A stretch of DNA of 64,000 nt from Bdellovibrionota bacterium (GTDB lineage Bacteria > Bdellovibrionota_C > UBA2361 > JAFLCA01), in NCBI GenBank assembly GCA_044347745.1, contig JBIKUD010000008.1:26841-90840 (forward strand). The letters run 5' to 3'. Below, piece after piece: positions 5,288 through 50,321 of the stretch. Below the pieces are notes generated by a model. The model worked only from the letters and a program-made list of their open reading frames with translations, was not told the DNA's origin and did no database searches. Each line of letters begins with the position of its first letter. Positions within the stretch are counted from its first letter, which is position 1. The position numbers and the translations under genes were made by a program.

Positions 5288-5839
5288 ATGATTAGAGAAA
5301 AAAGTAGCGATAAGTTCCCGCTCTTAAGCCCCATACCTGCATTTGCTTTGCGAAATGTAGATGGAGCAATGATATCTCAAAACTTTTTTCAGGGAGCAAA
5401 GGCGTCCTTGGTGTTTTTTAGCTGCAACCACTGCCCGTATGTGAAAGGAAGCGAAGACTTACTTGTTCGCCTCGTGCGTGAATTTGAGCCTAAGGGACTC
5501 CGCACTGTTGCCATAAACTCGAATGATGCTCAAAAATATCCTGATGACTCATTTGAGATGATGCAGCAAAAAGCTAAAATTGCAGCCTTGCCCTATCCGT
5601 ATCTACATGATGAATCACAAGAAGTGGCCCGTAGCTTTGATGCTGCCTGTACGCCAGAGTTTTATTTGTTTAATGCTGCTGGAAAACTTTGTTATCACGG
5701 AACTATTAATGATAGTCCAAAGGATGCCAGCAAGGTGAGCAAGCAGCATTTACGCACAGCGCTAGAGCAACTTTTTTCTGGAGCGGAAGTAAGCCCAGGC
5801 TATGTGCATCCGCTTGGCTGCTCGATTAAGTGGAAGTGA
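5288..5839 (+). CDS. Thioredoxin-fold protein (redoxin/TlpA-like thiol-disulfide oxidoreductase)
   Basis: CxxC motif in the context FFSCNHCPYVKG. Length about 180 aa, typical of thioredoxin-like proteins. Confidence 0.55.
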   Translation: MIREKSSDKFPLLSPIPAFALRNVDGAMISQNFFQGAKASLVFFSCNHCPYVKGSEDLLVRLVREFEPKGLRTVAINSNDAQKYPDDSFEMMQQKAKIAALPYPYLHDESQEVARSFDAACTPEFYLFNAAGKLCYHGTINDSPKDASKVSKQHLRTALEQLFSGAEVSPGYVHPLGCSIKWK

Positions 5840-6452
5840 AGTTCTTTTTTTGATGCGCGGGCTCGGATTTCAGTGTCCGTTGAGCGGCACTCCGTCAAAC
5901 TGTTATCTGTACAACTGTTAGTCCGTAACCCGTGATCTGCTGCTCCCGTTCTCCGTCGGCCCGTATTCAGTACACCAGTTAGTCCGTTTTCTGTGACCTG
6001 CTCCAGTTTCAGAAACCAGTTTCGAGCTCCTGAGAAATAAGGGGCTCTTAGCCCCGGTACATTAATAGCTTATAAAGATGAGCTGCCAAGCAGTCGGCTT
6101 CTGCTACAAGATGGCTGCCACTTGCTCCAAGCTCAAGTATGGCCTGGCACTCATTTTCCGTTGAGCCGAAATCCGACAAACCGGGATCAGCCCACTGGTC
6201 TCCGGCACCTGACTTGGCAAGAAGGCAGTCAGGCTTGGCAGAAGCTAGACTGCCTCGGCGCTCACTTATATAAACTTATTAAGAGTACGGGCTGAGGCCC
6301 TACTTTTTTTCCGAATTTCAGTTGCTGTTGGGCTGTCTCCCGTTGGCCCGTAGCCTGTCCTGGACCCTGGTTTTCCAGTCCCTGACCCGGATCCGGAAAA
6401 AACGGTCTCGGAGTTGGGCACCAGATCCTGAAACTTCCATTTATCTTAGTAG

Positions 6453-6488
6453 ATAAAAAAAAGGCTAAGTGGGTGGGGGACCCACTTA
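6453..6488 (-). terminator. Rho-independent terminator-like hairpin on the minus strand, with no annotated gene upstream of it
   Basis: Perfect 8-9 bp stem (aagtgggt / acccactt) with a 5-nt G loop. On the minus strand it is followed after 3 nt by a run of 9 T. Confidence 0.5.
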
Positions 6489-6794
6489 ACCAGGAGTCAG
6501 GCATTAAATATTTCACTTTGAAATTATCGCCGTGAATTAAAGGGTATTTCTATCCATTGCGAGAAGTGTGCCAATTCCCAGGTTGTGTTATCAGTACCAA
6601 GGTTACTAGTTTGTTAAGGTAACTGTAAGATTTGGACGTAACGTAAGATTGTAAGAAAAGTTATAAATTATATAGTAAATTCAATAAGATAAACTTAATC
6701 GCCAGCTTCTGGCCTGTCTGGCCGATAGAAACTAAGGCAAAATTGGCAACTCCTCAGAAAAATTGGGAACCAGGATTACGAAGGTGAACTACAT

Positions 6795-8783
6795 ATGAGT
6801 TTGAACATCAAAAACTTAAGCAAGTTGGCTAATGCCGTCCGAGTGCTATCAATTGATGCCATTGAAAAAGCAAATTCGGGACACCCTGGCTTGCCGCTCG
6901 GCGCTGCCGATTTCACCACTTTGCTTTGGGCAAACCACCTGCGTTTTAACCCCAAGAATCCCGGATGGATTGGCCGGGACCGCTTTATTTTGTCAGCCGG
7001 ACACGGCTGTATGCTTTGGTATTCTTTGCTTCATTTGTTTGGTTATGACCTTGGCCTAAATGACCTTAAAAGCTTTAGGCAATGGGAAAGCAGAACACCA
7101 GGACACCCTGAATTTGGAATGACCCCTGGTATTGAAACCACCACCGGGCCACTTGGGCAGGGGTTCGCAAATGGTGTGGGCATGGCACTGGCATCTAAAA
7201 TGCTGGCTGAGCGTTATTCGCAAAGCTTGTTTGGTTCAAAGGTTTTTGCCGTTGTCAGTGACGGAGATGTAATGGAAGGTGTCGCCAGCGAGGCGGCTTC
7301 ATTGGCCGGACACTGGGGCCTCAATAATCTAATTTACCTATACGACGATAATCATATCTCGTTGGCCGGACATACCGATGTTTGTTTTACCGAGTCAGTA
7401 CCTCAAAGACTTGAGGGCCAAGGTTGGTTTACTCAGTCGGTAAATGGGCATGATATCGCTGCGGTTGAAGCCTGCATTCAAAAGGCAAAGGCAGAAAAAA
7501 ACAGGCCAAGTATTATTTGCTGCCGAACGACTTTGGGGTTTGGTAGTCCCAATAAAGCTAATACCCATGACGTACATGGAGCTCCGTTGGGAGCCGAGGA
7601 ACTGAAGCTCACCAAAAAAGCTTTGGGTTGGCCTGAGGATAGTCAGTTTTTAGTTCCCGAAGATGTGCAGGCTTATTGTAATGAGTTAATTGAAAGCAAA
7701 ATTGCTGAGTACCAGAAATGGGAGAAAGAATTTGCAGCTTGGGAGAAAGCTGAAGGTGGAAAAGCGAAAGAGCTGAAGGCTCAAATTGCGCGAGAGTTAC
7801 CAGCAACCTTAAAAGGTAGTTTGCTTGCAGCTTTTGCTGAGCCCAAAAAAGATGCTACCCGCAATCTTTCCCATAAAGCGATTCAAGTTATCGCCAAAGA
7901 AGTGCCTTGGTTTGTGGGCGGATCCGCTGATCTTGATCCTTCAACCAAGACCAACATCAAAGATGGCGGAGATGTACAAAAGCCAGCTTTTAGTGGCAAA
8001 AACATAAAGTTTGGTGTGCGTGAACATGCGATGGGGTCGATTGCAAATGCGTTTGCATATACCCGCGCATGGGTTCCCTATACTGCAACCTTCCTCGTTT
8101 TTGCCGACTACATGCGGCCGCCAATACGGCTTGCCGCCATTTCGCATTTACAATCACTCTTTATTTTTACTCATGATTCATTTTGGGTTGGCGAAGATGG
8201 GCCTACTCATGAACCAATTGAGCATGTCATGAGTTTGCGCGCGATTCCGCAGTTGTATGTGTTTAGACCAGCGGACGGAATTGAAGTTGCCATGTGTTAT
8301 TACGAGGCGCTGAACCTTAAAGAACGTCCGAGCACCTTAATGTTTACTCGTCAAAATGTGGCCCCACTCGAAAGAGAGGCAAATTTCAACCCAGATATGA
8401 TTGGGAAAGGGGCTTACATCGTAAGTGGCACGGACGTAGAAAGTTTGGTGCTTGTTGCCACAGGTTCTGAAGTTGCCCTAGCTTGCGAAGCCAAGAAGCT
8501 GCTTGCTTCTAAGGGGATTAAGGCCAGAGTGGTTTCAATGCCCTGTATGGAGAAATTCTTTGAGCAGCCTCAGTCTTATCGCGAGGCGATTCTTCCCGCT
8601 GCTGCAAAGAAGGTTTCAATTGAAGCTGGAATTACTATGGGCTGGCATATAATAGTTGGCTCAGGCGGATTAACAATTGGCCTAGACCACTACGGAGCTT
8701 CGGCCCCTGGTGAACTATTGGCAGAAAAATTTGGTTTCACACCAGGTGCTGTTGCTCAGAAAATTGAAGCTTGGCTTAAATAG
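6795..8783 (+). CDS. tkt: Transketolase
   Basis: 662 aa. It has the N-terminal TPP-binding motif SGHPGLPLGAADF, and the length and overall layout are typical of Tkt. Confidence 0.92.
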   Translation: MSLNIKNLSKLANAVRVLSIDAIEKANSGHPGLPLGAADFTTLLWANHLRFNPKNPGWIGRDRFILSAGHGCMLWYSLLHLFGYDLGLNDLKSFRQWESRTPGHPEFGMTPGIETTTGPLGQGFANGVGMALASKMLAERYSQSLFGSKVFAVVSDGDVMEGVASEAASLAGHWGLNNLIYLYDDNHISLAGHTDVCFTESVPQRLEGQGWFTQSVNGHDIAAVEACIQKAKAEKNRPSIICCRTTLGFGSPNKANTHDVHGAPLGAEELKLTKKALGWPEDSQFLVPEDVQAYCNELIESKIAEYQKWEKEFAAWEKAEGGKAKELKAQIARELPATLKGSLLAAFAEPKKDATRNLSHKAIQVIAKEVPWFVGGSADLDPSTKTNIKDGGDVQKPAFSGKNIKFGVREHAMGSIANAFAYTRAWVPYTATFLVFADYMRPPIRLAAISHLQSLFIFTHDSFWVGEDGPTHEPIEHVMSLRAIPQLYVFRPADGIEVAMCYYEALNLKERPSTLMFTRQNVAPLEREANFNPDMIGKGAYIVSGTDVESLVLVATGSEVALACEAKKLLASKGIKARVVSMPCMEKFFEQPQSYREAILPAAAKKVSIEAGITMGWHIIVGSGGLTIGLDHYGASAPGELLAEKFGFTPGAVAQKIEAWLK

Positions 8784-9025: not shown

Positions 9026-11335
9026 CTATTCAGCAACTAAAGTGTACGGATTTAGCCCAACCGCAACTCTGGCGCAGGCAGCCGCTTGTTCAGCTTTACT
9101 CTGTAGAGTTGGCGCGACAGTAAGAGCATTTCTCTGGTCATCGCAGGAGCCTCCTTGCGGGCATGGTTCACGAAATCGACTTTGGAGCACACACGGCGAG
9201 CAGGCATGTAAAGCTTTGTTACAATCATTTGCTGGATTTGCGTCTAGGTCAGAATCGCAGGCGGCGCCCCCTCGATCGTTGTAAAAATTTACATAATTAC
9301 TTACTGGACCGGGTTCGAGCATTGGGCAAATAAAGCCACCGGTATCAATAGCAAGCTGTGTAAATAGCCCTACAGGAGAGCCAAAGATCCACCCAGTATT
9401 TCCTGCGGTAAAATTGTTAAATGCTTGGTCCAGAGCAGCAGTGGGAGCTCCAGTATCATCGTAGCTTGCTGAACTTACGAACGCTTGTGTGCCTCCGCCC
9501 CCTTGGCCAGAGAAGCCAAGCGCGCGGGCTTGGTCGTAACTTAAATAGCAAGCTGGATTGTCGGTAGTAAATCCGGTGCCTGAAGTCCAGGTGCCGCAAG
9601 CGGGGTTGTTGCTTGAAATATTAAAATAATTGGGGCGAATGCCGCTGCCGTCTAGAATAGTGGTCAGCGAAATTTCTCTTTGTTGTAAAAGTGTTCTGAT
9701 GCTTGGAATGCCAGGTCCAATATTATTAAAAAGGAGCTGTGCCTCAGCGCGCCGATAATACGAAAAAGTTGGTGGGCTGCCCGCTGGTAAAATAGGCACA
9801 TAACCAGTTCCCGTAGAATTGGAATACAAACTGGAGACCCCATCGGTAGCCAGAATAATTGACTTACTTGAAAGTGGGGGGCAAAAGTTTGTGAGCGTAT
9901 TGGCTGCATCTAAGAGCGCCAAGACAATATTTGTATTTTGGCTGTTTGCCGAAGGAAACCAACCCTTATCAACAAAATTTGGGTGAATTTTAGGATGTGC
10001 AGGGTCCGGTACGTTTGCTCCAGCGCTAAACACTATCCGTCCAGCATTGTCCATGTTGGTAAGCTGGATAAGGTACCCTAAATCATTCGTAAGGCCGGTG
10101 CCGGGCTCTTTATCTCGAATGACATCGGAAAACATTACGACAACGCTGCTATCTGTGCCCGATTGGGTGGCCTGCATTCGTCTAAGACCAGCGTTAAAAG
10201 CTAACATATTGTTCGAAAACGGCTGGGGCCCTGTGTACGCTGGTGGTGCGTGGAATTTTTCAACCCACACAGGCACATTGGGCCCTCCTGGCGTCACAGG
10301 GGCTGATTCAAGTTCGTAGTCGTCTTGATAATGGCGAATATCAGGCGGGGTTCCCGTGCCATAAGCGGAGGTTCTAAATTGCGGATAGTTGCACCATGCT
10401 ATTCCCTCGGCGCTTAAATATGGATTGCTTAAATTAGGAGACTGGCAGTTGACTGGAAGGTTTGCCTGAGTAAGTGCATAAAAGCCAAAATTGTCTTTGT
10501 TCGGCCCACCTAAGCTTTCAGGTAAAGCCATTTGCGAGGGAGCGCAGCAGGCAGTCCCTACGCAGGTGCTCGGAATCTGGTTACAAAACTCAACCGGAAG
10601 CCCCCCGGGGTTAGTAGGATCACAGCAGCTTGTTGGGTTTGCTGAATCATACTCGCAGGAGCTGGTGCTTATGTTAATGCAGGGGTTTGGTGGGGCAGCC
10701 CGATACGGCTTATGAGTTTCTACTTGAACTGAGATAGAAAGATCCATTACATAGGCCGCGCAGCGCGGCACAATAGCGGCAATTGCACTGGCGTTAATAT
10801 TAAATCCATTTAGCCCAAAAAAGTTACCGAACGGAAAATCGATGGGATCATTTGGCTCGGTATTTACCGAGAGCTTAACTGCATTAATTGTGGTGCCTGG
10901 AGTGCTGCTTGGGTTTCCCTCAACAAAGCAGGGGTAAGCTCCGCCGCAAGGGTCAATTCCAACGGGTTGTGACTGATACCAAGTGCCATAAGCAGCTACG
11001 CCGCCGCTGCCAACTAAAGGACTATAGCCAATGTTTTGAATCGGATTTTGGGTGCCGGCTAACTTATTTGCCGCAAGTATTTCTCTTGCGCGATTAATGC
11101 CGTCAGCCACACGGGCATCATGCATACTCGAGGGGTTTGGGCTATTTACATAACCCTCTAGGGCTGCAAGGGCGGCCAAATTGGTAGCATCAAGTAATCT
11201 TGTTTTGCTTGAGCTTAAAATGCCAAGTCCAATTACTGCGCCGGTAAGAAGCACAATTGCGGTAATAAGCAGGGCGAGGAGTACCATAAAAACTCCCTGC
11301 TCTTTTTTATTTTTCAGAGGTTGCAAGTGCTTCAT
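9026..11335 (-). CDS. TadG-like Tad/Flp pilus-associated protein with a probable vWA-like region and Cys-rich segments
   Basis: N-terminal single TM of the TadE/TadG type (VFMVLLALLITAIVLLTGAVIGLG). It also has a MIDAS-like VVVMFSDV...ILATDG segment and many Cys clusters. It lies adjacent to two TadE-like genes. Confidence 0.5.
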   Translation of the reverse strand: MKHLQPLKNKKEQGVFMVLLALLITAIVLLTGAVIGLGILSSSKTRLLDATNLAALAALEGYVNSPNPSSMHDARVADGINRAREILAANKLAGTQNPIQNIGYSPLVGSGGVAAYGTWYQSQPVGIDPCGGAYPCFVEGNPSSTPGTTINAVKLSVNTEPNDPIDFPFGNFFGLNGFNINASAIAAIVPRCAAYVMDLSISVQVETHKPYRAAPPNPCINISTSSCEYDSANPTSCCDPTNPGGLPVEFCNQIPSTCVGTACCAPSQMALPESLGGPNKDNFGFYALTQANLPVNCQSPNLSNPYLSAEGIAWCNYPQFRTSAYGTGTPPDIRHYQDDYELESAPVTPGGPNVPVWVEKFHAPPAYTGPQPFSNNMLAFNAGLRRMQATQSGTDSSVVVMFSDVIRDKEPGTGLTNDLGYLIQLTNMDNAGRIVFSAGANVPDPAHPKIHPNFVDKGWFPSANSQNTNIVLALLDAANTLTNFCPPLSSKSIILATDGVSSLYSNSTGTGYVPILPAGSPPTFSYYRRAEAQLLFNNIGPGIPSIRTLLQQREISLTTILDGSGIRPNYFNISSNNPACGTWTSGTGFTTDNPACYLSYDQARALGFSGQGGGGTQAFVSSASYDDTGAPTAALDQAFNNFTAGNTGWIFGSPVGLFTQLAIDTGGFICPMLEPGPVSNYVNFYNDRGGAACDSDLDANPANDCNKALHACSPCVLQSRFREPCPQGGSCDDQRNALTVAPTLQSKAEQAAACARVAVGLNPYTLVAE

Positions 11336-11374: not shown

Positions 11375-12946
11375 TCAAACTCCGGTGCACCCACAACCTA
11401 AATTACAGCAGCGGTTATTGGCATTGCATCCGCTAGTACAGTAGGCACCTTGCGGCCCGCTACATTGACTACAGGTTAAGGTAGCTGTCGGAGAGGGTGT
11501 GTGGGTTGGTGTGGGCGTTAAGGTGATGGTCGCAGTGGCAGTCATAGTCGGTGTTGGAGACGGAGTGGTTGTGGCTGTAGCTGTTGCCGTTGCTGTTGCG
11601 GTTTGAGTTGGACTGCTTGTAGCGGTTGCAGTAGCTGTTTGCGTCGGAGTTGAAGTTGTTGTGGCCGTTTGAGTTGGAGTTCTCGTTGTTGTCGGAGTCC
11701 TTGTTGGTGTGCGTGTCGGCGTAACTGACGGTGTTAGGGTGACAGTCGGGGTTAAAGTCACGGTTGGCGTTAACGTAATTGTTGGCGTCGGGGTTACAGT
11801 TCCTGTTGCCGTGCTTGTCGGTGTGCTCGTTGTGGTCGGAGTCTGAGTCGGTGTCGGCGTAATAGTTGGCGTCAGTGTGGACGTTGGCGTTGAAGTAACC
11901 GTTGGCGTAAGGGTGATAGTTGGGGTGAGAGTCACCGTAGGCGTCGGCGTTATTGTAGGAGTAAGAGTTGGCGTCGGCGTTATTGTTGGTGTGCTCGTTG
12001 GTGTTGTCGTTGGTGTACTGGTGCTCGTTGGAGTTTGAGTCGGCGTTGGCGTAATTGTGGGTGTATTCGTAATCGTCGGTGTCAGCGTTGGGGTGTTCGT
12101 TGTTGTTGCCGTGGCTGTTGGTGTTGTAGTGGGTGTTAGTGTTGGCGTTGGTGTAAGTGTAGGAGTTGGAGTTGGGCTTACTGTAGCCGTTGGTGCCACG
12201 CCGCCTAGACCAAATACTCTTGCTCTACGAAAAGCAACCTGAGCTGCAACAAGTCTAAAATTTGGCACTAAAGGAGTGACTGGACTAAAGTCTACTTCTA
12301 AATGAACCACTAATGGATGCAAACCGAGCACATTCGCCCAGCTTTCTGTAGGTCCAGGCCAAAATTGGTTTGTGGTCGAATTTCGCGAAGGGTGCTCTAA
12401 AATCGAGTTATCACTCATGCGGCGCACTCTTTCGCCGGGACGCATAAACGCAGCATCTCTTAGATTTGAATTAGTAATGCCGCTGCCCGGAGCAACATAC
12501 GTAAGGCCCGAGCAATATGGGTTAGAGCTGCAGGTATAATCTGGAGAAAAGTAATGATCGAAAGGGATTAGTCGAGCACCACTAGGCACATTTGAAGGTG
12601 ATACTACCAGAGAAGCAGTTTGAAGCGCCCGCCCAAGCACGCCTGAATTCGGTACCCCGTTTGTGCCAAACACATCTGCGTGAAATTGGGCACATTTTTG
12701 GGTATTCGCGATTGTCGCCGTGCAAAATGTTTGATCAGTGGGAATTTCTGTTTCGCGTTTAGCTGCAAAATCAACTGCATCATGGGCAGCCCAATTCAGC
12801 ACCACCCAAATGAGAAAATAGCGGGCTATGTCGATGGTGAAAAAAACGAAGAGTAGAAAAATGGGCAGCGTGATGGCCGCCTCGATAAACGAGACCCCAG
12901 ATTGACTGGGTACTCTAGAGCGAAAAGATGAACGCGGGCCCTGCAT
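11375..12946 (-). CDS. TadE-like pseudopilin carrying a ~270-aa Thr-Pro repeat tract and a C-terminal Cys-rich knot
   Basis: N-terminal TadE motif [26 protein letters not shown]. The long (TPTPTLTPT)n region is encoded at about 11470-12250. The last 31 aa contain 10 Cys ([32 protein letters not shown]). Confidence 0.6.
11470..12250 (-). repeat. Highly repetitive coding DNA (degenerate 6-9 nt units encoding Thr-Pro repeats)
   Basis: On the plus strand I see periodic gttggcgt / gtcggcgt / gttggagt units. An antisense ORF translates as a VGV repeat. Confidence 0.7.
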
Positions 12947-13113
12947 AATTCTGTCGACTCAATCCGTAAGTACTCATACTAGGCAAGGGCCAGAATCCAT
13001 TCAAGCTATAGCTTACTTTTTAAATGACCAGCCATGGCCATTTAAAAAGCGCTCCAAACTCCATTGGGGCCCCACTGCACCCCAACACCTTGCTTTGCCC
13101 CGAGCTCACCCTT

Positions 13114-13773
13114 TTATGGGCAGGTACTTGGCGTACAGCTACTATCTGTGCAGCATGCCCCGCCAACGCTAATCAGGGTTCCATTGCAATCGTATAAACA
13201 TCCCGGATTTCCAAAGCGATTCAAAGAGCCTACTCCATTACCTGAGGTTGCAAGTATTGGAGCAACAACCTGTGTTTGGAAGTCGCCTGTCACAAGCTGA
13301 ACAAGTGGAGGTACGTTCGCGTCCATGGTGACGGTAATAGATCTCGCCGGAGCTCCCGTAACGTTATAAGAAGCGTCCATATCTGGAGGACCGCTCAATT
13401 TATGGTAGCGATTCATATTTCCGAGTTGGGTATTTCGATAGTTCATGTCATTGACGCCAATTTGCCCTTGAGGCCAGCCGGCTCCCGCAATTGCCACTTC
13501 GTAAGCCATATTGTTTACCCAGCTTACTTGGGAATAGAGGCGACCAAGTTCCAGAATTCCAGAGAAGAAGATGAAGATAATAGGCAAGGTAAAAAGAAAT
13601 TCTACAATGACACCGCCCTGGGCGTCTTTGCGCCAAGCTTGAGAAGAACAGTGTGATGCTAAATTCCACGCCATATTTGTATGCAGGGCCCAGTGAGCCC
13701 CTAACCTCTGTACCTTATATCTGGGGTTCAGCAAGAATTGATCCAATTCAAATTGCTCAAAAATCGATATCAT
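13114..13773 (-). CDS. TadE-like pseudopilin with a Cys-rich C-terminus. The true start is probably internal, near 13674.
   Basis: TadE motif GGVIVEFLFTLPIIFIFFSGILELGRLY. The C-terminal end reads GGACCTDSSCTPSTCP. The first 33 codons of the ORF look like an upstream run-on. Confidence 0.5.
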   Translation of the reverse strand: MISIFEQFELDQFLLNPRYKVQRLGAHWALHTNMAWNLASHCSSQAWRKDAQGGVIVEFLFTLPIIFIFFSGILELGRLYSQVSWVNNMAYEVAIAGAGWPQGQIGVNDMNYRNTQLGNMNRYHKLSGPPDMDASYNVTGAPARSITVTMDANVPPLVQLVTGDFQTQVVAPILATSGNGVGSLNRFGNPGCLYDCNGTLISVGGACCTDSSCTPSTCP

Positions 13774-13893
13774 GTTGAACTAACTAAGTAAAATTTCTAT
13801 TAGTCGCGGCAGACAAAAGGCGTTATGCTCAGCTTCTCAGAGTGCTCTGGCGTAACGCGCTGAATTTATTGTGTTTATTGGACTACGAATTTC

Positions 13894-14664
13894 ATGCAGA
13901 GCAGCAAAATGGCGGGGCCTGAACTAGTAATTGTAATGCCAGCCTATAACGAGGAAGGTTGTATCGAGCCCGTGGTATCTGGGTGGCTTAAGCAACTAGG
14001 GGCTATGGGGCTTAAGGGGCATTGCCTTCTCGTAGTTAACGACGGTTCCCGTGACCAAACCGGCAAAATCTTGGATAGCTTGGCAGCAAAGCAGCCTCAG
14101 GGCTTAAAGGTTATTCATCAACCTAATGGTGGGCATGGTAGAGCCCTACGGCATGCTTATGAGCAAGCACTGGCTCTTGAACCGAGCTGGGTTTTCCATG
14201 TTGATAGCGACGATCAGTTTATACCAGAAGATTTAAACAAACTTTGGCAGCAAAGGCACACCTCAGATTTTATACTTGGGCTCCGAGCAGTGCGACACGA
14301 TGCCCCGCATCGACTCGTTATAACCCGCATTATGAGGCTATTAAATTTTTTGGCTTTTGGTGTGTTTTTGAAAGATGCAAATGTGCCGTTTCGTTTGATT
14401 CGAGGATCGTACCTCAAATTGTTACTTGAAATTGTGCCTGCGACCGTATTTGCTCCAAACATTTTCCTCTCTGTGCTTGCTGCTCGTGATGGGCAGAATC
14501 TTGGTTTTTTACCGGTGCAACATCGTGAGCGAGAAACGGGAAAAGTATCTATCGTGCGCTGGGGACTGATAAAAGCTTGTATGCGTTGTGTCCGAGAGCT
14601 TATGGTTTTTCGGGTTCAGCTTGGATCAAATCTGGCAAAAATTCGGCGAGATCGTAAACCGTAA
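13894..14664 (+). CDS. GT2-family glycosyltransferase, polyprenol-phosphate sugar synthase type (Dpm1/GtrB/ArnC-like)
   Basis: The motifs VIVMPAYNEE, VVNDGSRDQT, NGGHGRAL and DSDDQF are all GT-A/GT2 signatures. The protein is short (256 aa), like polyprenyl-phosphate glycosyltransferases. Confidence 0.75.
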   Translation: MQSSKMAGPELVIVMPAYNEEGCIEPVVSGWLKQLGAMGLKGHCLLVVNDGSRDQTGKILDSLAAKQPQGLKVIHQPNGGHGRALRHAYEQALALEPSWVFHVDSDDQFIPEDLNKLWQQRHTSDFILGLRAVRHDAPHRLVITRIMRLLNFLAFGVFLKDANVPFRLIRGSYLKLLLEIVPATVFAPNIFLSVLAARDGQNLGFLPVQHRERETGKVSIVRWGLIKACMRCVRELMVFRVQLGSNLAKIRRDRKP

Positions 14665-14690: not shown

Positions 14691-16736
14691 GTGGGCCCTT
14701 TGGAGAATCTACCTGTGACAAAAATTGACCCCATCGCAGCCAATGAAATGTCTGTATCAAAAAGTTATTTTGCTGGGTTTTCTCGAGTTCAGCTTGTCTT
14801 ATTTTGGCTCTGCGTTGCGGTTGGATTAGCGCTGCGTTGGATAGGACTTGATGAAAGACCGTTTCATCATGATGAATCGTTGCATGGAATGTACGGGAAG
14901 TATTTTTTTGATTGGCCAGAGCACAATTACTACAAATACTCTCCAATGCTGCATGGGCCTTTCCTCTACAATATGTTGCGGGTTGTCTACAATACGCTCG
15001 GTGAAAGTGATTGGGCGGCTCGTGCGCCCATTGCGCTTGTAGGAAGTGCACTGCTGTTTGTTCCACTCTTGTTTCGTCGCTGGCTTAGCGTAGGCAGCGT
15101 GCTCGTGCTTACCGCCACTGTGTCTCTCTCTCCAACCCTAGTGTATTGGTCCCGATTTTTGCGTGAGGATACGCTTATTCTTGCGTTGATGGCCTTAATG
15201 CTATTTGCGGTCACAGAAATGCGCGCGCCTCTTAAAGCGTTCTGGTTCATTCTCGCTTTTACATTGCAGTTTTGTATTAAAGAAAATGCTTATGTGACTT
15301 TAGCTATTTTACTTGGCTACCTTGTTTTTGAGCATTTGTATGCATTATGGAAATTGGACGATAAAAATTCATTAGTCCGTTCGATGTTTCGATATGTGTC
15401 TCAGCACAAAGTTGCAACTTTCGTTGCGTGTGCGGTTAGTACCTTTATTTATTGTTATCTCTACAGCGCTGGTTTTCGCTACTCTCAGGGAATTCTCGAT
15501 GGTCTGTATCGTGAGAGCATTGTGTACTGGATGCATCACCACAACATCGAACGTATCAGCGGGCCGTTTTTGTTTCATTTCTACATGCTGTCTTGGTATG
15601 AGAGCTTGTTTGTTCTGGCCTTCTTGGCGCACCTCTACTTCTTTTATAGAGCTGCTTCAATGCCAGTACGCGCACTCGCTGCCGCCACTTTAATTTTTGC
15701 CTTAACCCTGGGTATTTGGGTATCGACCAACATGGGCGTTGGAGTCCAAGCTACAGGTTCTTTCTTGGACCCAACTAGTATTAACTTTCTTGTATGGAAG
15801 TTTTTTAAACTGAAAGACGGCTATGATTTAGTCGGACTTATCATATTTTTGGTTCATCCGTTTATTGTCACAGTGGTGCATCTTAACCGTGGTGAAAGGG
15901 CGCTCGCATTTTTTGGCTACTTCTTTACCGCCACACTTTTTACCTACAGCTATTTAGGCGAGAAGGTACCTTGGTTGTCTGTTTACCCATTTGTGTCAGG
16001 ACTGGCCTACTTTGCGTTGTTTTTTGAATCTGTGCTCGCCAAGTTTGACGTGGGCTATTGGTCTGAATGCAGCACTGCCGCATTGCTACGCAATTTTGGT
16101 ATTCTATGCTCGCTTCTTGGATTATGGTTCTTGGTAGAGTCTGGGGAGGTAGCCGAGCTGTGGTGGGTCTTTTCTGGCCTTGTTTTTGTGTTCGCCGCTA
16201 ACGCCGCTCAATCGGCAGGCATGCTCGGCTCGTATAATGCGGCGCGTTTTGGTTTTGCGGTGCTGGCTCTTTTTATGCTGAGAGCCTCAGTATTAACAAA
16301 CTTTGTATATGCCGGAGATGCACGAGAGTATATTTCTCAAGTGCATACTACCAAAGAATTTCACACCATCATGAAGGCTCTTCAAACTGAGATAAACAGC
16401 GAGCTTAGGGGCTATCGGCCTTCGGTTTTTGTAACGGGGGAAGCTACCTGGCCTTCAACTTGGTATATGCGTCATTATCCAAACGAATATAAGTTTACCG
16501 CAGCAACCGCTGATTACCCGTCATTTAATTATCTGGTGCTTGATTGGAAAGAAGGTGAGCGTCCTGCTGGTATTCCCGAGCACTTTAGGGTGCTGAAGAT
16601 CAACTTGCGTGGCTGGTGGGTTCCTGACTTTCGGGAAATGACCCTCAAGAGATTTTTAGCTTATGCGCTCAATCGCACTCCCTGGGGGCCAACAGGATAT
16701 TCCTACGTTAACTTGGTGGTAAACCCGGCAAAATAA
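14691..16736 (+). CDS. GT-C fold integral membrane glycosyltransferase-like protein (PMT/ArnT-like, GT39-type)
   Basis: Polytopic membrane protein of 681 aa. Its first loop carries HHDESLHGMYGKYF, which resembles the PMT/ArnT DE motif (FDEVHFGKF). Confidence 0.55.
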   Translation: MGPLENLPVTKIDPIAANEMSVSKSYFAGFSRVQLVLFWLCVAVGLALRWIGLDERPFHHDESLHGMYGKYFFDWPEHNYYKYSPMLHGPFLYNMLRVVYNTLGESDWAARAPIALVGSALLFVPLLFRRWLSVGSVLVLTATVSLSPTLVYWSRFLREDTLILALMALMLFAVTEMRAPLKAFWFILAFTLQFCIKENAYVTLAILLGYLVFEHLYALWKLDDKNSLVRSMFRYVSQHKVATFVACAVSTFIYCYLYSAGFRYSQGILDGLYRESIVYWMHHHNIERISGPFLFHFYMLSWYESLFVLAFLAHLYFFYRAASMPVRALAAATLIFALTLGIWVSTNMGVGVQATGSFLDPTSINFLVWKFFKLKDGYDLVGLIIFLVHPFIVTVVHLNRGERALAFFGYFFTATLFTYSYLGEKVPWLSVYPFVSGLAYFALFFESVLAKFDVGYWSECSTAALLRNFGILCSLLGLWFLVESGEVAELWWVFSGLVFVFAANAAQSAGMLGSYNAARFGFAVLALFMLRASVLTNFVYAGDAREYISQVHTTKEFHTIMKALQTEINSELRGYRPSVFVTGEATWPSTWYMRHYPNEYKFTAATADYPSFNYLVLDWKEGERPAGIPEHFRVLKINLRGWWVPDFREMTLKRFLAYALNRTPWGPTGYSYVNLVVNPAK

Positions 16737-16746
16737 GCGAGGGATT

Positions 16747-17463
16747 TTGCGCGCATTATTCTACTATGATGAAGGTATAAGCGAATGGTCGAGGAAGTAT
16801 CTTCCGCAAGCCATGCAAGATTCTTTGGGTGGAAAAGGCATGGAAGTAGCTACCATTCTTGCCGACCAAATTATTGCTGGCGACCTTGATTCAGCTCAGT
16901 TGCTTATTATGCCTGGCGGTGCTGATAGGCCCTACATTAAAAAATTAGGCGCTGAGGGCTGTCGCCAAATTCGGCGCTTTGTCAGTTCTGGTGGTACCTA
17001 TTTGGGGATATGTGCAGGGGCATATTTTGCAGCATCTAAAATTGAGTGGAATACAGGAGCGCCAGGTTCAATTTGTGCAGAGCGTGATCTTAAGTTTTTT
17101 TCAGGTAAAGCCATAGGTCCGTTGACAGGACCTGGCTCCTATCAGGCAGATTCTGAAATGGGGGCGCGAGTGCTCAGGCTTCACAGCCCAGATGGAGCCA
17201 GTTTTGCCTCATACTATAATGGCGGCTGTTGGTTTGAGCCAAATGGTGAAAGTTATGAGCCGATTGCATTTTTCACGGACTATAAAAACCGTTTGGCCGT
17301 GGTGAAAGGTGCTGTGGGGAAGGGCCGGGTAGTCCTCAGTGGTGTGCACCCTGAATTTTCGCCTGCAATGTTGGGCCCGCAACATGCGTGTTACCCAGAA
17401 CTAAAAGCCCGCGATGCACAAAGGGCAGCGCTTTGGGTACGGATATGTGATGCTCTACAATGA
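16747..17463 (+). CDS. Class I glutamine-amidotransferase-like / BPL_N-type domain protein
   Basis: LLIMPGGADRPY...GGTYLGICAGAYFA resembles a GATase1-like nucleophile elbow (G-x-C-x-G). Confidence 0.4.
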   Translation: MRALFYYDEGISEWSRKYLPQAMQDSLGGKGMEVATILADQIIAGDLDSAQLLIMPGGADRPYIKKLGAEGCRQIRRFVSSGGTYLGICAGAYFAASKIEWNTGAPGSICAERDLKFFSGKAIGPLTGPGSYQADSEMGARVLRLHSPDGASFASYYNGGCWFEPNGESYEPIAFFTDYKNRLAVVKGAVGKGRVVLSGVHPEFSPAMLGPQHACYPELKARDAQRAALWVRICDALQ

Positions 17464-17481: not shown

Positions 17482-19536
17482 TTAGGGCACGTACACCTTG
17501 TATTCCTTGCTTCGCACTATCTCCTTGAGGCAGCTGAATTGATTGCTTTGTAGGGACGGGTAGGCCTTTTTTTCAAGTGGGCCGAGCACAATATACGTTA
17601 TACGTTCACGACGGGCCAAGGTTCGAATATTTTCGCAATTGGGGTCAGTGTATATTTGATTCGTAACTTCCGTGCGTCGATTTACTTCAGCGTAATCTTT
17701 GCTGAGTAAATTTACATGATTCGTCCATCCCAAATAGGCTGGTTTGCCTGAGAGAGTGGCCACGTGCGTAGTAAAGTCGTACGCAGGTCCTTGTGCTTCA
17801 AGTACAGTGCCAAATCTACTGCGCTCTAAGATTTGGATGGTAGTGGCTGCCCCAGGAAAGCGTTTGTCTATTTCGCTTAGGCCTTGAGCGAGTGGTATCA
17901 CATCGTGAGCACTCGATTTTCTCACCTGAATGGTGCTGGTGAAAAAGCCGGTCATGAGGGCAATCAAAGTTACTAATATGGGAATTCTTGGAATATCTTT
18001 AATCTCGCCTAACCAGGGCATAAGCCAGGTAGAGGTGCGCCATAAGGCGAAGACATGCAGTGGCAGCCATGCAGCAGTGTAGGCTTTAAATACCGTATTC
18101 ATTCTTTCAACATCGCCACCATACGAGTCGTCGAAAAAGAAAAGTTCTGGAAATATAATCAGAAAGAGCCCAAGTACGCCCAGTGTCTCAAGCACGATAG
18201 CATCAATGCTGAGGGCAGATTTAGTTTGTTGTCGTAGTCGCCAAATGTTCAGCGCGAAAGCCACGAGTAGTAAATAAAGTGCTTTATTCGCTGCCAAGCT
18301 GGGAATAATAAATATTAGGCATAAAGTCATCCATCCCCAGGTGCGTGAGCTGAGAATTGTTGCACTGAGTATGAGAAAAAGTGGAAATCCCCAATGACGC
18401 AGCAAATCCTGCACACTTGAGTGGCCTATGCTGCTTGTGACCGGTCGAAGAGGCATATCGCCGGGCAAAATATTGCGAGAGGAAGCAAACAGACTAATTC
18501 CAAGAAAGAGGATAAGGAGCGAGGCGCTCGCTAATTTTAAATCAGCGAAATCTTTAAGGCTTGGGCGCAGGCTCCATACGTACCCCAATCGTGTGGTCAA
18601 GCGAGGAAGTAGGAAAAAAAGCACGCCAATTCCACACAGTATGAGCCAAACTGGAACCTCCCAAGCGTTGGCGTTGTAGAGCCAAAGGGGAGGGATTACA
18701 AAAACGCTGATACCGATAAAAAAACGCCAAGCATTTTCGGTGGTTTGTTTTAAGAGTGTGTGTAGCGCCACTATACACAAAGGAGTTACGCTTAAGTTCA
18801 AATAGTGAGGGTGTGCGTCGCCAAGTAGAAACGACCACGCAGGAAATTCATTGATGGTTCCGGGAATAACCCGTGACGGGCCCCACCAGTTTTTGTCGGC
18901 TTTTAGGAAGAATAAGACACCTTCAATATTCGAACCAAGCGCGATTAACGTGCTTGATGCCAGTGCAAAGAGGGGAGAAAATTTTGCGATATCCCGCAGA
19001 ATCAAAAAACAAAAAGTTAAAAAGAAACTAAGAGAGAGTGCAACGAGGGAATGGTAAACCTCCCAGGTTTGGAGCCCGAATAGTGCATGCAGTACATGCC
19101 CAAAACGATACCAATAAAAATAATAATTGAGCGGGGTCTCCGCCATCCAAGGCTCAAGCGGGATAATAGGAGAGTGAACTGCCGAGGCAACTAGGGCATA
19201 GTCTCTTAAACGTTCGCCCATCTGGTAAAAGTCTGGCCAACGGAGACAGAGGGAATAAAGGGCTGCATAACTTATTATCCAGAGAAGCAGCGGCAAGCCC
19301 TCGCGCTGAAGGTTCAGCTGTGCCCGCTTCCTATATGGATTTGTAAGAAAGTGTATTATCGCAATACCAAGCATCCAAAACACCGCGTACGATACCGGAT
19401 TTGGGATACCCATGCTGCCGAAGGGGAATGCGAGGATGGGCACAGTGAGCAGGGTTAAGACCGCAGTTAGAAAGGCTGGGAGGCGTAACAAAAATGCGAC
19501 GAATGTTGCGGTGCTAACACCGAGTATTATTTCCAT
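17482..19536 (-). CDS. Polytopic membrane protein, DUF2298/YYY-motif type (GT-C-like candidate)
   Basis: 684 aa with more than 12 predicted TM segments. The NYYFYWYRFG motif is reminiscent of the chlor_Arch_YYY family. Confidence 0.45.
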   Translation of the reverse strand: MEIILGVSTATFVAFLLRLPAFLTAVLTLLTVPILAFPFGSMGIPNPVSYAVFWMLGIAIIHFLTNPYRKRAQLNLQREGLPLLLWIISYAALYSLCLRWPDFYQMGERLRDYALVASAVHSPIIPLEPWMAETPLNYYFYWYRFGHVLHALFGLQTWEVYHSLVALSLSFFLTFCFLILRDIAKFSPLFALASSTLIALGSNIEGVLFFLKADKNWWGPSRVIPGTINEFPAWSFLLGDAHPHYLNLSVTPLCIVALHTLLKQTTENAWRFFIGISVFVIPPLWLYNANAWEVPVWLILCGIGVLFFLLPRLTTRLGYVWSLRPSLKDFADLKLASASLLILFLGISLFASSRNILPGDMPLRPVTSSIGHSSVQDLLRHWGFPLFLILSATILSSRTWGWMTLCLIFIIPSLAANKALYLLLVAFALNIWRLRQQTKSALSIDAIVLETLGVLGLFLIIFPELFFFDDSYGGDVERMNTVFKAYTAAWLPLHVFALWRTSTWLMPWLGEIKDIPRIPILVTLIALMTGFFTSTIQVRKSSAHDVIPLAQGLSEIDKRFPGAATTIQILERSRFGTVLEAQGPAYDFTTHVATLSGKPAYLGWTNHVNLLSKDYAEVNRRTEVTNQIYTDPNCENIRTLARRERITYIVLGPLEKKAYPSLQSNQFSCLKEIVRSKEYKVYVP

Positions 19537-21241: not shown

Positions 21242-22099
21242 ATGTGCAAGTTCACATTTTTTGAAATAGCTCAGGGCATGTTGCATATTAATCGATGCTT
21301 TTTCCTTTTCATGCTGATGTTGTTTTTTGCCGACCGGGCCCAGGCTGAAGTTCGCTTCGGTCCTTTTAGCTGGGCGCCAGATGAAAAATCATTAGTTGTT
21401 GTTTCTCCTGCGCCAGAGCGTGCCGGCGTGTTTATCGGTTACGATGCACAAAGTGAGAACGCCCAACAACTTAGTTTATCGCGATTTTTTAAGGGGCTAG
21501 GGTTAAGCCTCTTTCTGGCATTCGACACCAAGCGTCATCAATTTACTGAGATTATATTTGGAAATGGCAAAAGATACCCCATCATGGGCGGAGTGACATT
21601 GCGAATTGGTTCTTTGCGAGTCGGAATTAATGCAGTTACTGGTCACACCCAAGAAGCGTATTGGTCAATCTCAGTCGAGTCGAAGGAAAAGCCTCGGATT
21701 GCAGGCTACTCAGGTTTGAGAGATCTTTTTTCGTATAGTGGGGCAACTGCGCTTTCCTATTTGGAAGCAAATCAGATTTTGAGCAAAGAATGGTCCAGCT
21801 CTGTGCATGAATATGTGGTTAAAGACAAACACGAATTGTTTGTGGGCGGGCAGCCATTTAAGGGCGATGTGCTTGGAGTTACCTTGCCAATTTCAAACCC
21901 ATGCTTAGACAGTGAAGTTCAGCTACAGACCACTGGGCCGGATGCTTCGATTGGCTCAATCGCCGATTTTCTAGTGATTAGTTTAAGCGAATCAGTTTTA
22001 CAGGTGTTTAGGCCTGCCGACGGAATGTTCGGTGTTATTCGAGCAAGTGGAGAGAAAGGCAAAGAAACGTGCACCTTTGTTCAAGTGCCAAATTCATAA
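21242..22099 (+). CDS. Hypothetical secreted protein
   Basis: N-terminal hydrophobic signal-like segment (FFLFMLMLFFADRAQA). I found no recognisable motifs. Confidence 0.35.
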   Translation: MCKFTFFEIAQGMLHINRCFFLFMLMLFFADRAQAEVRFGPFSWAPDEKSLVVVSPAPERAGVFIGYDAQSENAQQLSLSRFFKGLGLSLFLAFDTKRHQFTEIIFGNGKRYPIMGGVTLRIGSLRVGINAVTGHTQEAYWSISVESKEKPRIAGYSGLRDLFSYSGATALSYLEANQILSKEWSSSVHEYVVKDKHELFVGGQPFKGDVLGVTLPISNPCLDSEVQLQTTGPDASIGSIADFLVISLSESVLQVFRPADGMFGVIRASGEKGKETCTFVQVPNS

Positions 22100-25000: not shown

Positions 25001-26082
25001 AATATCGCTGCCCAGATTGCAAACATGGGGTACAGAGGCAAAAGATATCGTGGAAACTTAACGGGAAATCCTCCATAGATATAAAAAGTTACTAAAGACC
25101 AAGCGCTTACAATCAGCATTGAGGCAGAAAAATGAGACCTGAGCGAGTAAAGGAGACCGATTCCACTTGCGAGTGCTATAAATGGGCCTAGAGTATAAAA
25201 ATATATCTGGTGCAAAGGATACAACCAGGGTGTCGTGTGCGCGTATTGAATGATGTACGGAGGTCGCCAGTCACCACGCACCATAGAAATTTGCTCCATG
25301 GTGTGTTTGATAAAGAGATCTTTATCAATAAGTGCAAAGGGCTCAGAGAGGAGAAATGAGCACAATCCTACAAGTGGAATGCTGCTGGCATATATCCACC
25401 AGTGTGCGCTTTTAAGCATTCGTAGCTGGCAGCCAAAAATAAGAATGGCTAAACCCAAAGGTAAAGCAAGATTAAGTGCGCTCACTTTAGTTGCAAGTGC
25501 CAAGCCCCAAAGCCAGCCACTGAGGACAAATGCCCATAATTTTCCGGAGCGAATCTGAAGGATGGCCCAAAGGGTCCAGAGGCTTGCTGTGGTAAGAAAA
25601 ATATCCACCGCAAAAAAACGAGAAAGCTGAAAATAGAAAGTATTTGTTGCTAGTAATGCGGTGGCTATGACTGCAACCGAGCGAGAGTTGCAAATGCTCC
25701 ATGCAAGTTTCCAAGTTGCAATAAGGCCCAGCATGCCAACAAAAGCTGAAAGTCCACGACCTATTAAAAAAAGGTTGTCGTAGCTAAAGGCCGCGGGCCA
25801 AAGCAGTGCGAGCAATTTCGCCAGGCCCCAGGTTAGGTAAAATGGCAAGCTGCCATACGCAAAAGACAACGGGTTCATTCCGTTTTTTTCGAGGTCTAAG
25901 GTAACCATGACCATGTGGCGTTCGTCAGGATGGAAGCTTACCCCGTGATTGATGGTCGTCAGTGCGGCAAAGAAAAAAGCGAAGCAGAGCGCGGTGAGGG
26001 GCCAGGCGTCTTTCAGTGTCTGAATCTGCCCTTTCAAAGTCAGTTTTGAGTCTCCAGCTAAATCAGATTGAGGTGTATGCAT
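22081..26082 (-). CDS. Giant (1333 aa) polytopic membrane protein: an N-terminal PMT/ArnT-like GT-C domain fused to a DUF2298/YYY-type domain
   Basis: The N-terminal loop motif FHPDERH is of the DE-motif type. There are more than 20 hydrophobic segments and an MRYYYFGSY motif in the C-terminal half. It is a single uninterrupted ORF. Confidence 0.55.
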   Translation of the reverse strand: MHTPQSDLAGDSKLTLKGQIQTLKDAWPLTALCFAFFFAALTTINHGVSFHPDERHMVMVTLDLEKNGMNPLSFAYGSLPFYLTWGLAKLLALLWPAAFSYDNLFLIGRGLSAFVGMLGLIATWKLAWSICNSRSVAVIATALLATNTFYFQLSRFFAVDIFLTTASLWTLWAILQIRSGKLWAFVLSGWLWGLALATKVSALNLALPLGLAILIFGCQLRMLKSAHWWIYASSIPLVGLCSFLLSEPFALIDKDLFIKHTMEQISMVRGDWRPPYIIQYAHTTPWLYPLHQIYFYTLGPFIALASGIGLLYSLRSHFSASMLIVSAWSLVTFYIYGGFPVKFPRYLLPLYPMFAIWAAIFTTGFLKNSITQNIGKLVPCFVVSISLVRWFGFYQIYSEPHAYETASRWIYQNIAPGSKLLGVDWDDRLPLSLPGLDARQYLFEGADHELQLYHPDNSDKVTQYATKLASSDYLILPTARSYGAIPRIPEEYPLSTQMFQLLFRGALGYELVYSQKTRPTFAGYVWNNDKADESLTVYDHPKVLVFKNSERLGTEQISRRLSEPYAFAPLPTRSDMLKRDGPAHAHTAQSRQSTPLAISLWVLVLVALGILGNTFTRILFTQKQDSDTGCDKVLGLALLSGTVWIGTSFNLWRSTGANAWLLFTLLTLLGLTLGYFAHRKSHFITVPKLKSYLRLDILFWLSFAGFIFLRSFQPEIFWGEKPMDFGFLNYFIRLETLPPQDPWAAGSSMRYYYFGSYMMALLHKMSGVDSAIGYNLSMATIAALSISALYSLLAYLTKKPLIALSFTILVLVGSNIEVLLLALQAEKKSFDLFWASSRLFTEPSITEYPFWAFLFADLHAHVIVVPVILTSLLFLARFFRAEPADLSPTLILHRILCGILLGLIFITNTWDAISYGLLTGIILVYTSCMHARGRYPKRAIARITSAFADLLRDGSLLAIGALPFLVIFKLNSANDLTPHFGYNHPFELNNLNQILRHLGHWLVIPCGVFLQLLLSSRSDVSRWKRLRNFLYVLILMSPPLLLSAGSPHQPQTLSWDVIAVSCFLCALGAALALNSKSSRGQRFGALSLWLAGCIMAFAELCFLMDHMNTVFKFYNAIWLLLGIANATLFSRLLQNRGARYKLLGRYFSCFVVFASGICFLVVMAGSIYNAYIMTSFRRINGPRPTLNGTAYLKENAFHEYQAIQWLRRNVQGTPVILEAYGQSYQNFTRFSMHTGLPTVLGWEYHVQQRGTSRQAVHERIQAINAIYSSDNLEIAHTYLKLLAVRYIIIGTEEQKLYANGTYNSVGLRKFTENPGLFKLRMQSGGVRIYEFGT

Positions 26083-50043: not shown

Positions 50044-50114
50044 GCCCCAATTTTCCTTGAAATTTCTGGCTTTCGATAGTCGGTATTAAATTGACTTCGC
50101 CTCACGCGCTTGTT

Positions 50115-50270: not shown

Positions 50271-50321
50271 TAGCTGTGTGAGTTGATTTCTCCCTCGTGG
50301 ATTGGGGTTTAATCACACTAT

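Follow-up and report, generated by a model that had tools for sequence, protein, structure and literature searches.

A TadE-type minor pilin with a strictly alternating Thr/Pro stalk and a cysteine-rich C-terminal module, encoded in a candidate Tad tip cassette of a Bdellovibrionota bacterium

The stretch of DNA analysed here, referred to as the window, comprises 64,000 nucleotides from an uncultured, Oligoflexia-like Bdellovibrionota bacterium (assembly GCA_044347745.1, contig JBIKUD010000008.1, positions 26,841 to 90,840 of the forward strand); all coordinates below are those of the window unless a related locus is named. Its minus strand contains a cassette of three genes, coding in this order for a small TadE-like protein, a protein of 523 amino acids (aa) with a long Thr/Pro-rich stalk, and a TadG-like protein. 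The middle gene (11375..12946, minus strand, stop codon included) is the main subject of this report. It is a real and intact open reading frame (ORF), and the ORF listing, a Pfam TadE match and the existence of orthologues of like architecture identified its product as a modular TadE-type minor pilin made of a pilin head, a stalk and a cysteine-rich tail. The same three-part build was found in the related loci L006 and L013, and in about 90 family clusters. An earlier note on this DNA, prepared from the sequence alone, had proposed that the protein is a surface-exposed, glycosylated adhesin tip of unusual architecture, with a hypervariable repeat tract and a C-terminal cysteine knot, rather than a classic minor pilin.

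The first 17 residues (12896..12946, minus strand) form a class III leader of the Flp/TadE type, recognised by the motif SG/VSFIEAA (the slash marks the predicted cleavage site). Cleavage by a prepilin peptidase after G17 would leave V18 as the first residue and a glutamate at position +5 (E22). This glutamate was invariant in an alignment of 16 homologous N-domains. Residues 17–58 matched the Pfam family TadE (PF07811) with 38.3 bits (E 1.4e-9), above the gathering threshold of 22.9 bits; the match and the G/xxxxE motif bear out the initial assignment of the protein to the TadE-type pilins. The pilin domain, aa 18–247 (12206..12895, minus strand), was predicted to consist of an alpha1 helix followed by an alpha/beta globular head. 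AlphaFold2, supplied with the 16-sequence alignment, modelled aa 1–248 confidently (predicted local distance difference test, pLDDT, 85.1; predicted template modelling score, pTM, 0.82), with the helix spanning residues 16–63 at a pLDDT above 90. The head contains four cysteines (75, 85, 139 and 145), and the alignment revealed three further conserved motifs: AF(L/M)RPGE (166–172), W196-P197 and E201-x-W203. A Foldseek search of the PDB with the head fold returned nothing at E<0.001, and searching PDB sequences with the N-domain profile gave noise only.

The stalk, aa 248–491 (11474..12205, minus strand), was delimited by its composition, its register and the period of its DNA. Thr accounts for 122 of its 244 residues (50%) and Pro for 48 (20%), followed by Ala (17) and Ser (14). 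A regular-expression search found an unbroken ([T/S]-X)121 dipeptide alternation, 242 aa long, at 11465..12190. In one phase of this alternation, 120 of 122 positions were occupied by Thr (115) or Ser (5), with no register slips; in the other the residues were more varied (48 Pro, 16 Ala, 12 Leu, 9 Ser, 8 Val, 8 Ile and 7 Thr). Such regularity is far beyond chance, and this is the sole tract of its kind in the window. The low-complexity segment joins the pilin head to the cysteine module, the arrangement seen in O-glycosylated Pro/Thr linkers. Metagenomes also yielded thousands of unrelated exported proteins with linkers of the (T-X)n type (e.g. P0047, P0080, P0097 and P0119), among them GH44 and other glycoside hydrolases, dockerin/cohesin proteins, LamG proteins and RCC1-repeat proteins. 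Many of these come from Chloroflexota, and it was in this phylum that the DUF2298/TIGR03662-3 families were defined.

The possibility that the ORF is a spurious product of the repeat was rejected, since the cysteine tail is conserved in frame in the orthologues, which validates the minus-strand frame. The reading frame is kept through 726 nt of repeat into the tail, which speaks for translation of the ORF in full. Opposite the Thr-Pro tract, the plus strand contains a Gly/Val-rich ORF of 61 aa (12057..12242); this is a mirror-frame artefact of the repeat and not a gene.

The last 32 residues (11378..11473, minus strand) form a module with eight cysteines, at positions 492, 495, 503, 507, 513, 514, 518 and 520, spaced C-x2-C-x7-C-x3-C-x5-CC-x3-C-x-C. 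The earlier note quoted this tail correctly but counted ten cysteines in 31 residues. All eight cysteines aligned in the orthologous tails of the first cassette copies of L006 and L013 (L006a and L013a), and the protein had its spacing class, 2-7-3-5-0-3-1, in common only with the orthologous tails of these two loci. When the protein was compared with its L006a orthologue, the heads were 66% identical and the tails 37%, the identity in the tail being mostly that of the cysteines. More generally, within each spacing class the cysteine framework was conserved and the loops had diverged.

This module could not be placed in a known family. The tail had no match in Pfam even at E<=1, nor had the cysteine modules of 10 relatives; phmmer found nothing below E 6 among PDB sequences, and Foldseek, run against the PDB with the tail model, nothing below E 8. 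The model itself, a single-sequence AlphaFold2 prediction, was of low confidence (pLDDT 66, pTM 0.33; range of pLDDT over five models, 50–66). The relationship to knottins or defensins for which a family search and a structure prediction had been recommended thus found no support, and the assignment was rejected. The module does resemble knottins, inhibitor cystine knot (ICK) peptides and defensins in being about 30 aa long and dense in cysteines, in having a CC doublet, and in the C-C-CC-C-C order of its last six cysteines. It differs in having eight cysteines and in the loops among the last six (3, 5, 0, 3 and 1 residues); the final loop of one residue is shorter than the ICK consensus permits. 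Two further candidates were discarded. A C-terminal sorting signal of the PEP-CTERM, MYXO-CTERM or GlyGly-CTERM type does not fit, as no transmembrane segment or basic tail follows the cysteine module. A ribosomally synthesized and post-translationally modified peptide such as a lanthipeptide, which the Thr-rich and Cys-rich composition might recall, does not fit either: the conserved neighbourhood lacks genes for a dehydratase, a cyclase or a radical-SAM enzyme, and the product is a pilin of 523 aa.

The N-domain profile was searched against 1.84 billion cluster representatives, and family clusters were defined at 50% identity. At E<1e-30 the search recovered 93 clusters; relaxing the limit to E<1e-10 gave 283. 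The family of some 90 or more clusters comes mostly from metagenome-assembled genomes (MAGs) of Bdellovibrionota and ‘Deltaproteobacteria’. Among the best 80–100 members, the pilin head was followed by a linker of 0 to ~300 aa, usually Thr/Pro-rich, and then by at least one Cys-rich module. A terminal cysteine cluster was present in 79 members; 30 of them had eight cysteines in it, 28 had six, six had 10, six had 12 and two had 14, and the spacing fell into several classes. In 73 of the 79 the count was even and at least six. Cysteine counts that are almost always even argue for complete disulfide pairing. A genome scan for relatives, alignment-based and made with four sequences, identified the nearest locus, with a head 67% identical, in a MAG labelled Oligoflexia, and further related loci in MAGs of Bdellovibrionota, ‘Deltaproteobacteria’ and Dadabacteria.

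The architecture had been called unusual. This holds in that it is absent from Pfam and from the literature searched, where text searches found no description of a pilin/stalk/Cys-module arrangement; within the family, as the 73 members with an even terminal count attest, it is the norm. Both modular minor pilins and tip cassettes of Tad systems have precedents. A family of TadE-like subunits in which a strictly alternating (T-X)n stalk leads to a small cystine-framework module, however, appears to be undescribed, and its modules represent an unannotated class of small cystine-rich bacterial domains.

The gene upstream of the stalked pilin (13114..13773, minus strand) codes for a small TadE-like minor pilin (Pfam TadE, 33.6 bits; motif G/GVIVE) that ends in a C-terminal tail with six cysteines. 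The L006 orthologue, at 48% identity, shares this tail. Alignment with it indicates that the listed 219-aa ORF probably starts at M34 (13674), as the part listed as coding upstream of that codon (within 13675..13893) aligns with non-coding DNA in L006. The downstream gene (9026..11335, minus strand) codes for a large TadG-like minor pilin of 769 aa with 24 cysteines, which matched Pfam Tad (22.6 bits; cutoff 22.3) and fell just under the cutoff for Tad_C (20.3 bits; cutoff 22.1). Its sequences DLSIS (aa 198–202; DxSxS) and TDG (aa 497–499) hint at a divergent vWA/MIDAS domain. The protein had no VWA match in Pfam and no match among PDB sequences.

A TadG-like homologue followed the stalked-pilin gene in nearly all related loci with downstream sequence, and synteny of all three genes was seen in the window and in L001, L002, L005, L006 (twice), L007 (two or more times), L013 (twice), L015, L020, L021 and L022. 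The window has a single copy of the cassette. Three related loci have two or three copies in tandem (L006, 5755..15400; L007, 7444..19125; L013, 5455..14749, in the coordinates of each locus); in these, the stalked pilin of the first copy ends in an eight-cysteine tail (class A) and that of the second in a ten-cysteine tail (class B). The six-cysteine tail of the small TadE-like protein is missing from many cassettes.

In its gene organisation the cassette resembles the Tip clusters of the Kil Tad pilus of Myxococcus xanthus, four KilM/KilL/KilN (TadE/F/G-like) clusters coding for interchangeable, disulfide-rich tip complexes (Herrou et al. 2025, PMC12075869). Some Kil Tip clusters are encoded away from the core genes, and analogues have been predicted in Bdellovibrio (PMC12075869). 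Bdellovibrio itself has dispersed Tad genes and requires a solitary tadG tip gene to invade its prey (bioRxiv 10.64898/2026.07.08.737194). The two systems share a set of three genes coding for a short (KilM), a C-terminally extended (KilL) and a large TadG-like (KilN) pilin; they are also alike in being separable from the Tad core, in occurring in several copies per genome, in being rich in predicted disulfides, and in that the host phylum in the present case includes predators. They differ in what is variable and exposed: in the Kil Tips this is the distal domain of KilN, the large pilin, and the text of that paper (PMC12075869) reports neither a Thr/Pro stalk nor a terminal Cys mini-module in KilL or KilM. 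The bulky C-terminal extension, together with the likeness to the Kil Tip cassettes, makes a location of the 523-aa protein at the tip of a pilus plausible. The proposed exposure at a surface tip is therefore plausible as far as location goes, and a role as an adhesin would be a further step.

The contrast drawn at the outset with a classic minor pilin proved a false opposition: the protein is a minor pilin to which a module has been added. Like the canonical TadE/TadF proteins (PF07811) of Aggregatibacter, Caulobacter and Pseudomonas, it has a class III leader with the G/xxxxE motif, a hydrophobic alpha1 helix and a TadG-like neighbour. Those proteins are ~130–200 aa long and encoded inside tad operons; here the gene belongs to an orphan cassette apart from the Tad core, and a family-specific head of ~190 aa, a stalk of 244 aa and a cysteine module have been added. 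A comparable solution is known from the type IV pilins PilB and PilC of Streptococcus sanguinis, in which a vWA module and a lectin module, respectively, are displayed at the tip for adhesion, as summarised in PMC12075869. There too a pilin is fused to a C-terminal module too bulky for the body of the filament. The PilB and PilC modules, however, are large recognisable folds set directly on a type IVa pilin, as opposed to a 32-aa cystine peptide on a long tether in a Tad (type IVc) context. Taken together, it is highly probable that the 523-aa protein is a TadE-type minor pilin belonging to a tip cassette.

Beyond the cassette, and divergently transcribed from it, lies a gene for a GT2 glycosyltransferase (13894..14664, plus strand; Glycos_transf_2, E 2e-19) resembling the polyprenyl-phosphate sugar synthases (ArnC / AglJ / PpgS / Dol-P-hexose transferase). 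It is followed by a gene for a polytopic, PMT_2-like membrane protein of the Agl23 family (14691..16736, plus strand; TIGR03663, 229.6 bits against a cutoff of 126), the syntenic L022 orthologue of which carries a precomputed PMT_2 match. Two minus-strand genes lie further on. One codes for a polytopic DUF2298 / Chlor_Arch_YYY membrane protein, a candidate GT-C-type transferase (17482..19536; Pfam DUF2298, E 2.3e-49; TIGR03662, 219.6 bits, under the cutoff), and the other for a 1333-aa fusion of PMT_2 (E 1.1e-8) and DUF2298 (Chlor_Arch_YYY; E 3.5e-76) that exceeds the TIGR03662 cutoff (22081..26082; 428 bits against 300). Between the Agl23-like gene and the first DUF2298 gene, a 238-aa protein (16747..17463, plus strand) has only a BPL_N domain (biotin-protein-ligase N-terminal, glutamine-amidotransferase-like). 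Orthologues of the GT2 protein, 55–68% identical, adjoin the cassette in L006, L013, L014, L015 and L022; the shorter DUF2298 gene is syntenic in the same five loci, and the fusion gene in L014, L015 and L022. The GT2 gene, the Agl23-like gene and one or two DUF2298 genes thus accompany the cassette in the window and in these five loci, with N-domain identities down to 33%. Genes of the PMT/PMT_2 type were also found upstream in L003. This recurrent pairing of the stalked-pilin family with an Agl23/DUF2298-type cluster likewise appears to be undescribed.

Thr/Pro linkers are classic targets of O-glycosylation, and in Actinobacteria they are modified by GT-C PMT enzymes fed by GT2 polyprenyl-phosphate-sugar synthases. 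The PT-repeat adhesins of C. acnes (DsA1) are heavily glycosylated. The stalk shares with the O-glycosylated Pro-Thr linkers (the PT box of a Cellulomonas cellulase, the actinobacterial PMT/Ppm1 substrates and C. acnes DsA1) a strict X-T/P-T alternation between folded modules, as well as the nearby presence of a gene resembling GT2 polyprenyl-phosphate-sugar synthases and of PMT_2-type proteins. It differs in that the candidate transferases are of the Agl23 and DUF2298 (Chlor_Arch_YYY) types and not canonical PMTs, and in that the putative substrate is a pilin. In Haloarcula, Agl22 and Agl23 take part in the synthesis and use of the Dol-P-hexose that goes into extracellular N- and O-glycans (Lu 2020, as cited in PMC11182771). 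The glycosylation that the earlier note attributed to the stalk thus gains circumstantial support from the adjacent GT2/Agl23-like/DUF2298 cluster, and O-glycosylation of the stalk is considered likely from gene content and composition.

A scheme consistent with these features can be proposed. The prepilin would enter the inner membrane and be cut after G17 by a prepilin peptidase of the TadV type, leaving the glutamate at +5. The head and the C-terminal module would fold in the periplasm with all 12 cysteines paired, in two disulfides in the head and four in the tail, and an envelope oxidase such as the VKOR-DsbA fusion encoded nearby might aid their formation. The ([T/S]-X)121 stalk would remain extended and would probably be O-glycosylated by the periplasm-facing PMT_2/DUF2298 (GT-C-like) enzymes; the adjacent GT2 protein would make the polyprenyl-phosphate sugar for this reaction, and the Agl23-like protein would handle it. 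Together with its two cassette partners, the pilin would form a complex that primes assembly of a Flp pilus by a Tad machine encoded elsewhere, so that it would end up at the distal tip. There, the cystine-stabilised knob, on a tether tens of nanometres long, would serve as a contact or recognition element able to bind a ligand. The contour length of the stalk is estimated at ~70–85 nm at 0.3–0.36 nm per residue, its average reach being much shorter. The complete chain, including stalk glycosylation and a free tethered recognition knob, is put forward tentatively, with a little less than even confidence.

The VKOR-DsbA/thioredoxin fusion invoked in this scheme is a candidate for the enzyme that catalyses disulfide formation in the envelope (28031..29401, plus strand; Pfam VKOR, Thioredoxin_4 and DSBA). 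The start of its gene is overlapped by 20 nt by the gene for a 542-aa polytopic membrane protein (26422..28050, plus strand) with no Pfam or NCBIfam match. In the Dadabacteria locus L010, homologues of both proteins are encoded immediately next to the cassette (about 5428..8314 of that locus), which suggests that the pair is functionally linked to the Cys-rich pilins. The presence of VKOR-DsbA in the window and beside the L010 cassette fits the oxidative folding of Cys-rich proteins.

Several points weigh against the scheme. No gene for a T2SSE ATPase, T2SSF platform protein, secretin, Flp pilin or prepilin peptidase was found in the 64-kb window, so that the protein can be tied to a particular pilus only indirectly. 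The weak model of the tail allows neither a knot nor a disulfide connectivity to be read from it. As to glycosylation, every NCBIfam match of the GT2 protein lay under its equivalog cutoff, and literature searches found no published function for DUF2298. The six loci with the glycosylation-type cluster have a transketolase gene and further neighbours in common as well, and their adjacency to the cassette may thus reflect synteny inherited in one lineage and not functional coupling; in about half of the related loci (L001, L002, L005, L007, L020 and L021) the cluster was not nearby, and the length of the stalk did not correlate with its presence.

These last observations favour a variant in which the protein is the same minor pilin but its stalk is an unglycosylated, passive linker, the GT2/Agl23/DUF2298 cluster acting on some other target (a lipid, a polysaccharide or an S-layer, for example) and lying next to the cassette only through shared ancestry of the genomes. 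This is a sub-variant of the minor-pilin interpretation and not an exclusive alternative to it. The unrelated genes kept in the syntenic block (transketolase, redoxin and alpha/beta-hydrolase) are as expected from it, and so is the occurrence of (T-X)n linkers in thousands of unrelated secreted proteins. On the other hand, the head-to-head divergence of the cluster and the cassette, with a spacer of ~220 bp, was kept while the cassette proteins fell to 33–67% identity; L003, with its upstream PMT/PMT_2 genes, belongs to a separate lineage; and linkers of this composition are typical glycosylation targets, as the C. acnes adhesins illustrate. On balance, a passive stalk is considered somewhat unlikely.

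The idea of a free knob at the end of a glycosylated tether must also be set against one in which the tail docks on the distal domain of the TadG-like protein, or forms intermolecular disulfides with the tails of its partners, locking the tip complex. Models of the Kil Tip, in which extended regions of KilL wrap KilN and KilM, provide a precedent; the small TadE-like protein likewise ends in a 6-Cys tail, the TadG-like protein has 24 cysteines, and tandem cassettes differ in tail class (A first, B second, in L006, L013 and L007). However, a tether of ~240 residues is far longer than the span of a tip complex, the Cys tail of the small TadE-like protein is absent from many cassettes, and an even number of cysteines within each protein favours intramolecular pairing. 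A docked tail therefore seems quite unlikely.

More doubtful still is that the protein is not a pilus subunit at all. It could be an uncleaved TadE-like anchor in the inner membrane, with a stalk spanning the periplasm and a Cys knob touching peptidoglycan, the outer membrane or a secretin. X-Pro dipeptide repeats are known as periplasm-spanning rods (the Pro-rich rod of TonB is an example), many TadE-domain proteins are uncharacterised, and neither a Tad core nor a Flp gene lies nearby. Yet the G/xxxxE processing motif, with its invariant glutamate at +5, is kept family-wide; the gene is flanked by TadE-like and TadG-like genes in nearly all related loci, as in the off-core Tad/Kil tip clusters; and a stalk of 242 residues is several-fold longer than crossing the periplasm requires. 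These features point back to a cleaved minor pilin and make a membrane anchor improbable.

The tip-pilin interpretation leaves the repetitive DNA of the stalk to be considered. The earlier note described a tract of ~780 bp with near-periodic units of 6–9 nt, prone to expansion and contraction by slipped-strand mispairing. The tract is indeed present, but it is ~730 bp long and its period is strictly 6 nt: autocorrelation reached 0.54–0.57 at each multiple of 6, against a background of ~0.23. Were this a contingency locus, slippage of the Thr-Pro tract would cause rapid strain-to-strain or phase variation in the length of the stalk. Besides the strict period, two observations agree with this. 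The tandem repeat program TRF reported only short arrays (68–90% matches, scores <=88) with periods of 6, 12, 18, 30 and 36, all multiples of 6, suggesting past duplication of such units; and the stalk does differ in length from one orthologue or paralogue to another (242 aa in the window, 206 and 286 aa in L006, 174 and 170 aa in L013). At the DNA level, however, the repeat is degenerate. All four Thr codons are in use (44 ACA, 34 ACG, 27 ACT and 17 ACC), the 121 hexamers comprise 74 different sequences, no hexamer occurs in more than two exact tandem copies and no unit of 9–36 nt in more than one, and the longest exact repeat is 17 nt. Moreover, changes by multiples of 6 always keep the reading frame, so that no on/off switch would result. 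Near-identical, strain-level relatives in which polymorphism might show were not found in the collections searched: an exact-protein look-up and a single-protein metagenome scan returned nothing, word-indexed searches returned none above 45%, and the closest relative in all the collections was the genome-scan locus with 67% identity in the N-domain. The expected slippage was thus not borne out, hypervariability by this route is unsupported because the repeat DNA is degenerate, and a contingency locus is very unlikely. A periodic protein repeat is not in itself evidence of slipped-strand hypervariability when synonymous codons scramble the DNA.

That the tail might instead be a metal-binding or redox-active module (a CxxC-type zinc or iron site) not stabilised by disulfides, as the CxxC at the start of many tails could suggest (C-SQ-C here; CLAC, CGDC, CTRC and CQEC in relatives), is likewise highly improbable given its predicted extracytoplasmic location, a spacing so variable between classes that only the even number of cysteines is conserved, the absence of any metal-binding Pfam match, and the disulfide-forming VKOR-DsbA in the neighbourhood.

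It was not until 2025 that Tad tips were shown to be customised by minor-pilin complexes that can be exchanged for one another, and a tip protein of Bdellovibrio is needed for prey invasion. A tip pilin of the kind proposed here would represent another way to functionalise the tip, in which a TadE-like subunit, and not the large TadG/KilN, bears a displayed stalk and a disulfide-rich knob. It would amount to a second route for diversifying Tad pilus tips, spread over some 90 or more clusters in Bdellovibrionota-related bacteria. The main value of the finding may lie in a testable substrate–enzyme hypothesis for DUF2298-type proteins: the conserved pairing of a candidate substrate, 121 T/S-X dipeptides, with DUF2298 and Agl23-like proteins makes the activity of these enzymes directly testable. 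A bolder proposal would combine a rapidly diversifying cystine mini-domain, a glycosylated ([T/S]-X)n tether, alternative knobs encoded in tandem, and a stalk that is the dedicated substrate of an Agl22/Agl23 plus DUF2298 system into a ‘fishing-line’ class of Tad tips. That all of these hold jointly is unlikely. If they did, tandem cassettes would provide different knobs for different targets (prey or surfaces), and an archaeal/Chloroflexi-type pathway would supply the first function of DUF2298, that of a protein O-glycosyltransferase for T-X repeats.

Some minor features of the window were also recorded. The spacer of 167 bp between the small TadE-like gene and the stalked-pilin gene contains an 11-nt inverted repeat (CTTTTTAAATG / CATTTAAAAAG; 13016..13026 and 13039..13049), which could be an internal attenuator or operator. 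Comparison of the window with L006 revealed a partly conserved block (TTAGTTAGTTCAACATGATATC.. / TGGATCAA) within 13675..13893 that may be a regulatory site shared by the divergent promoters of the GT2 gene and the cassette. Far from the cassette, a cobalamin riboswitch (RF00174, 81 bits; 50113..50287, plus strand) lies upstream of genes for a TonB-dependent receptor, a periplasmic binding protein, an ABC ATPase and a FecCD permease (50322..54871), a typical B12 uptake operon.

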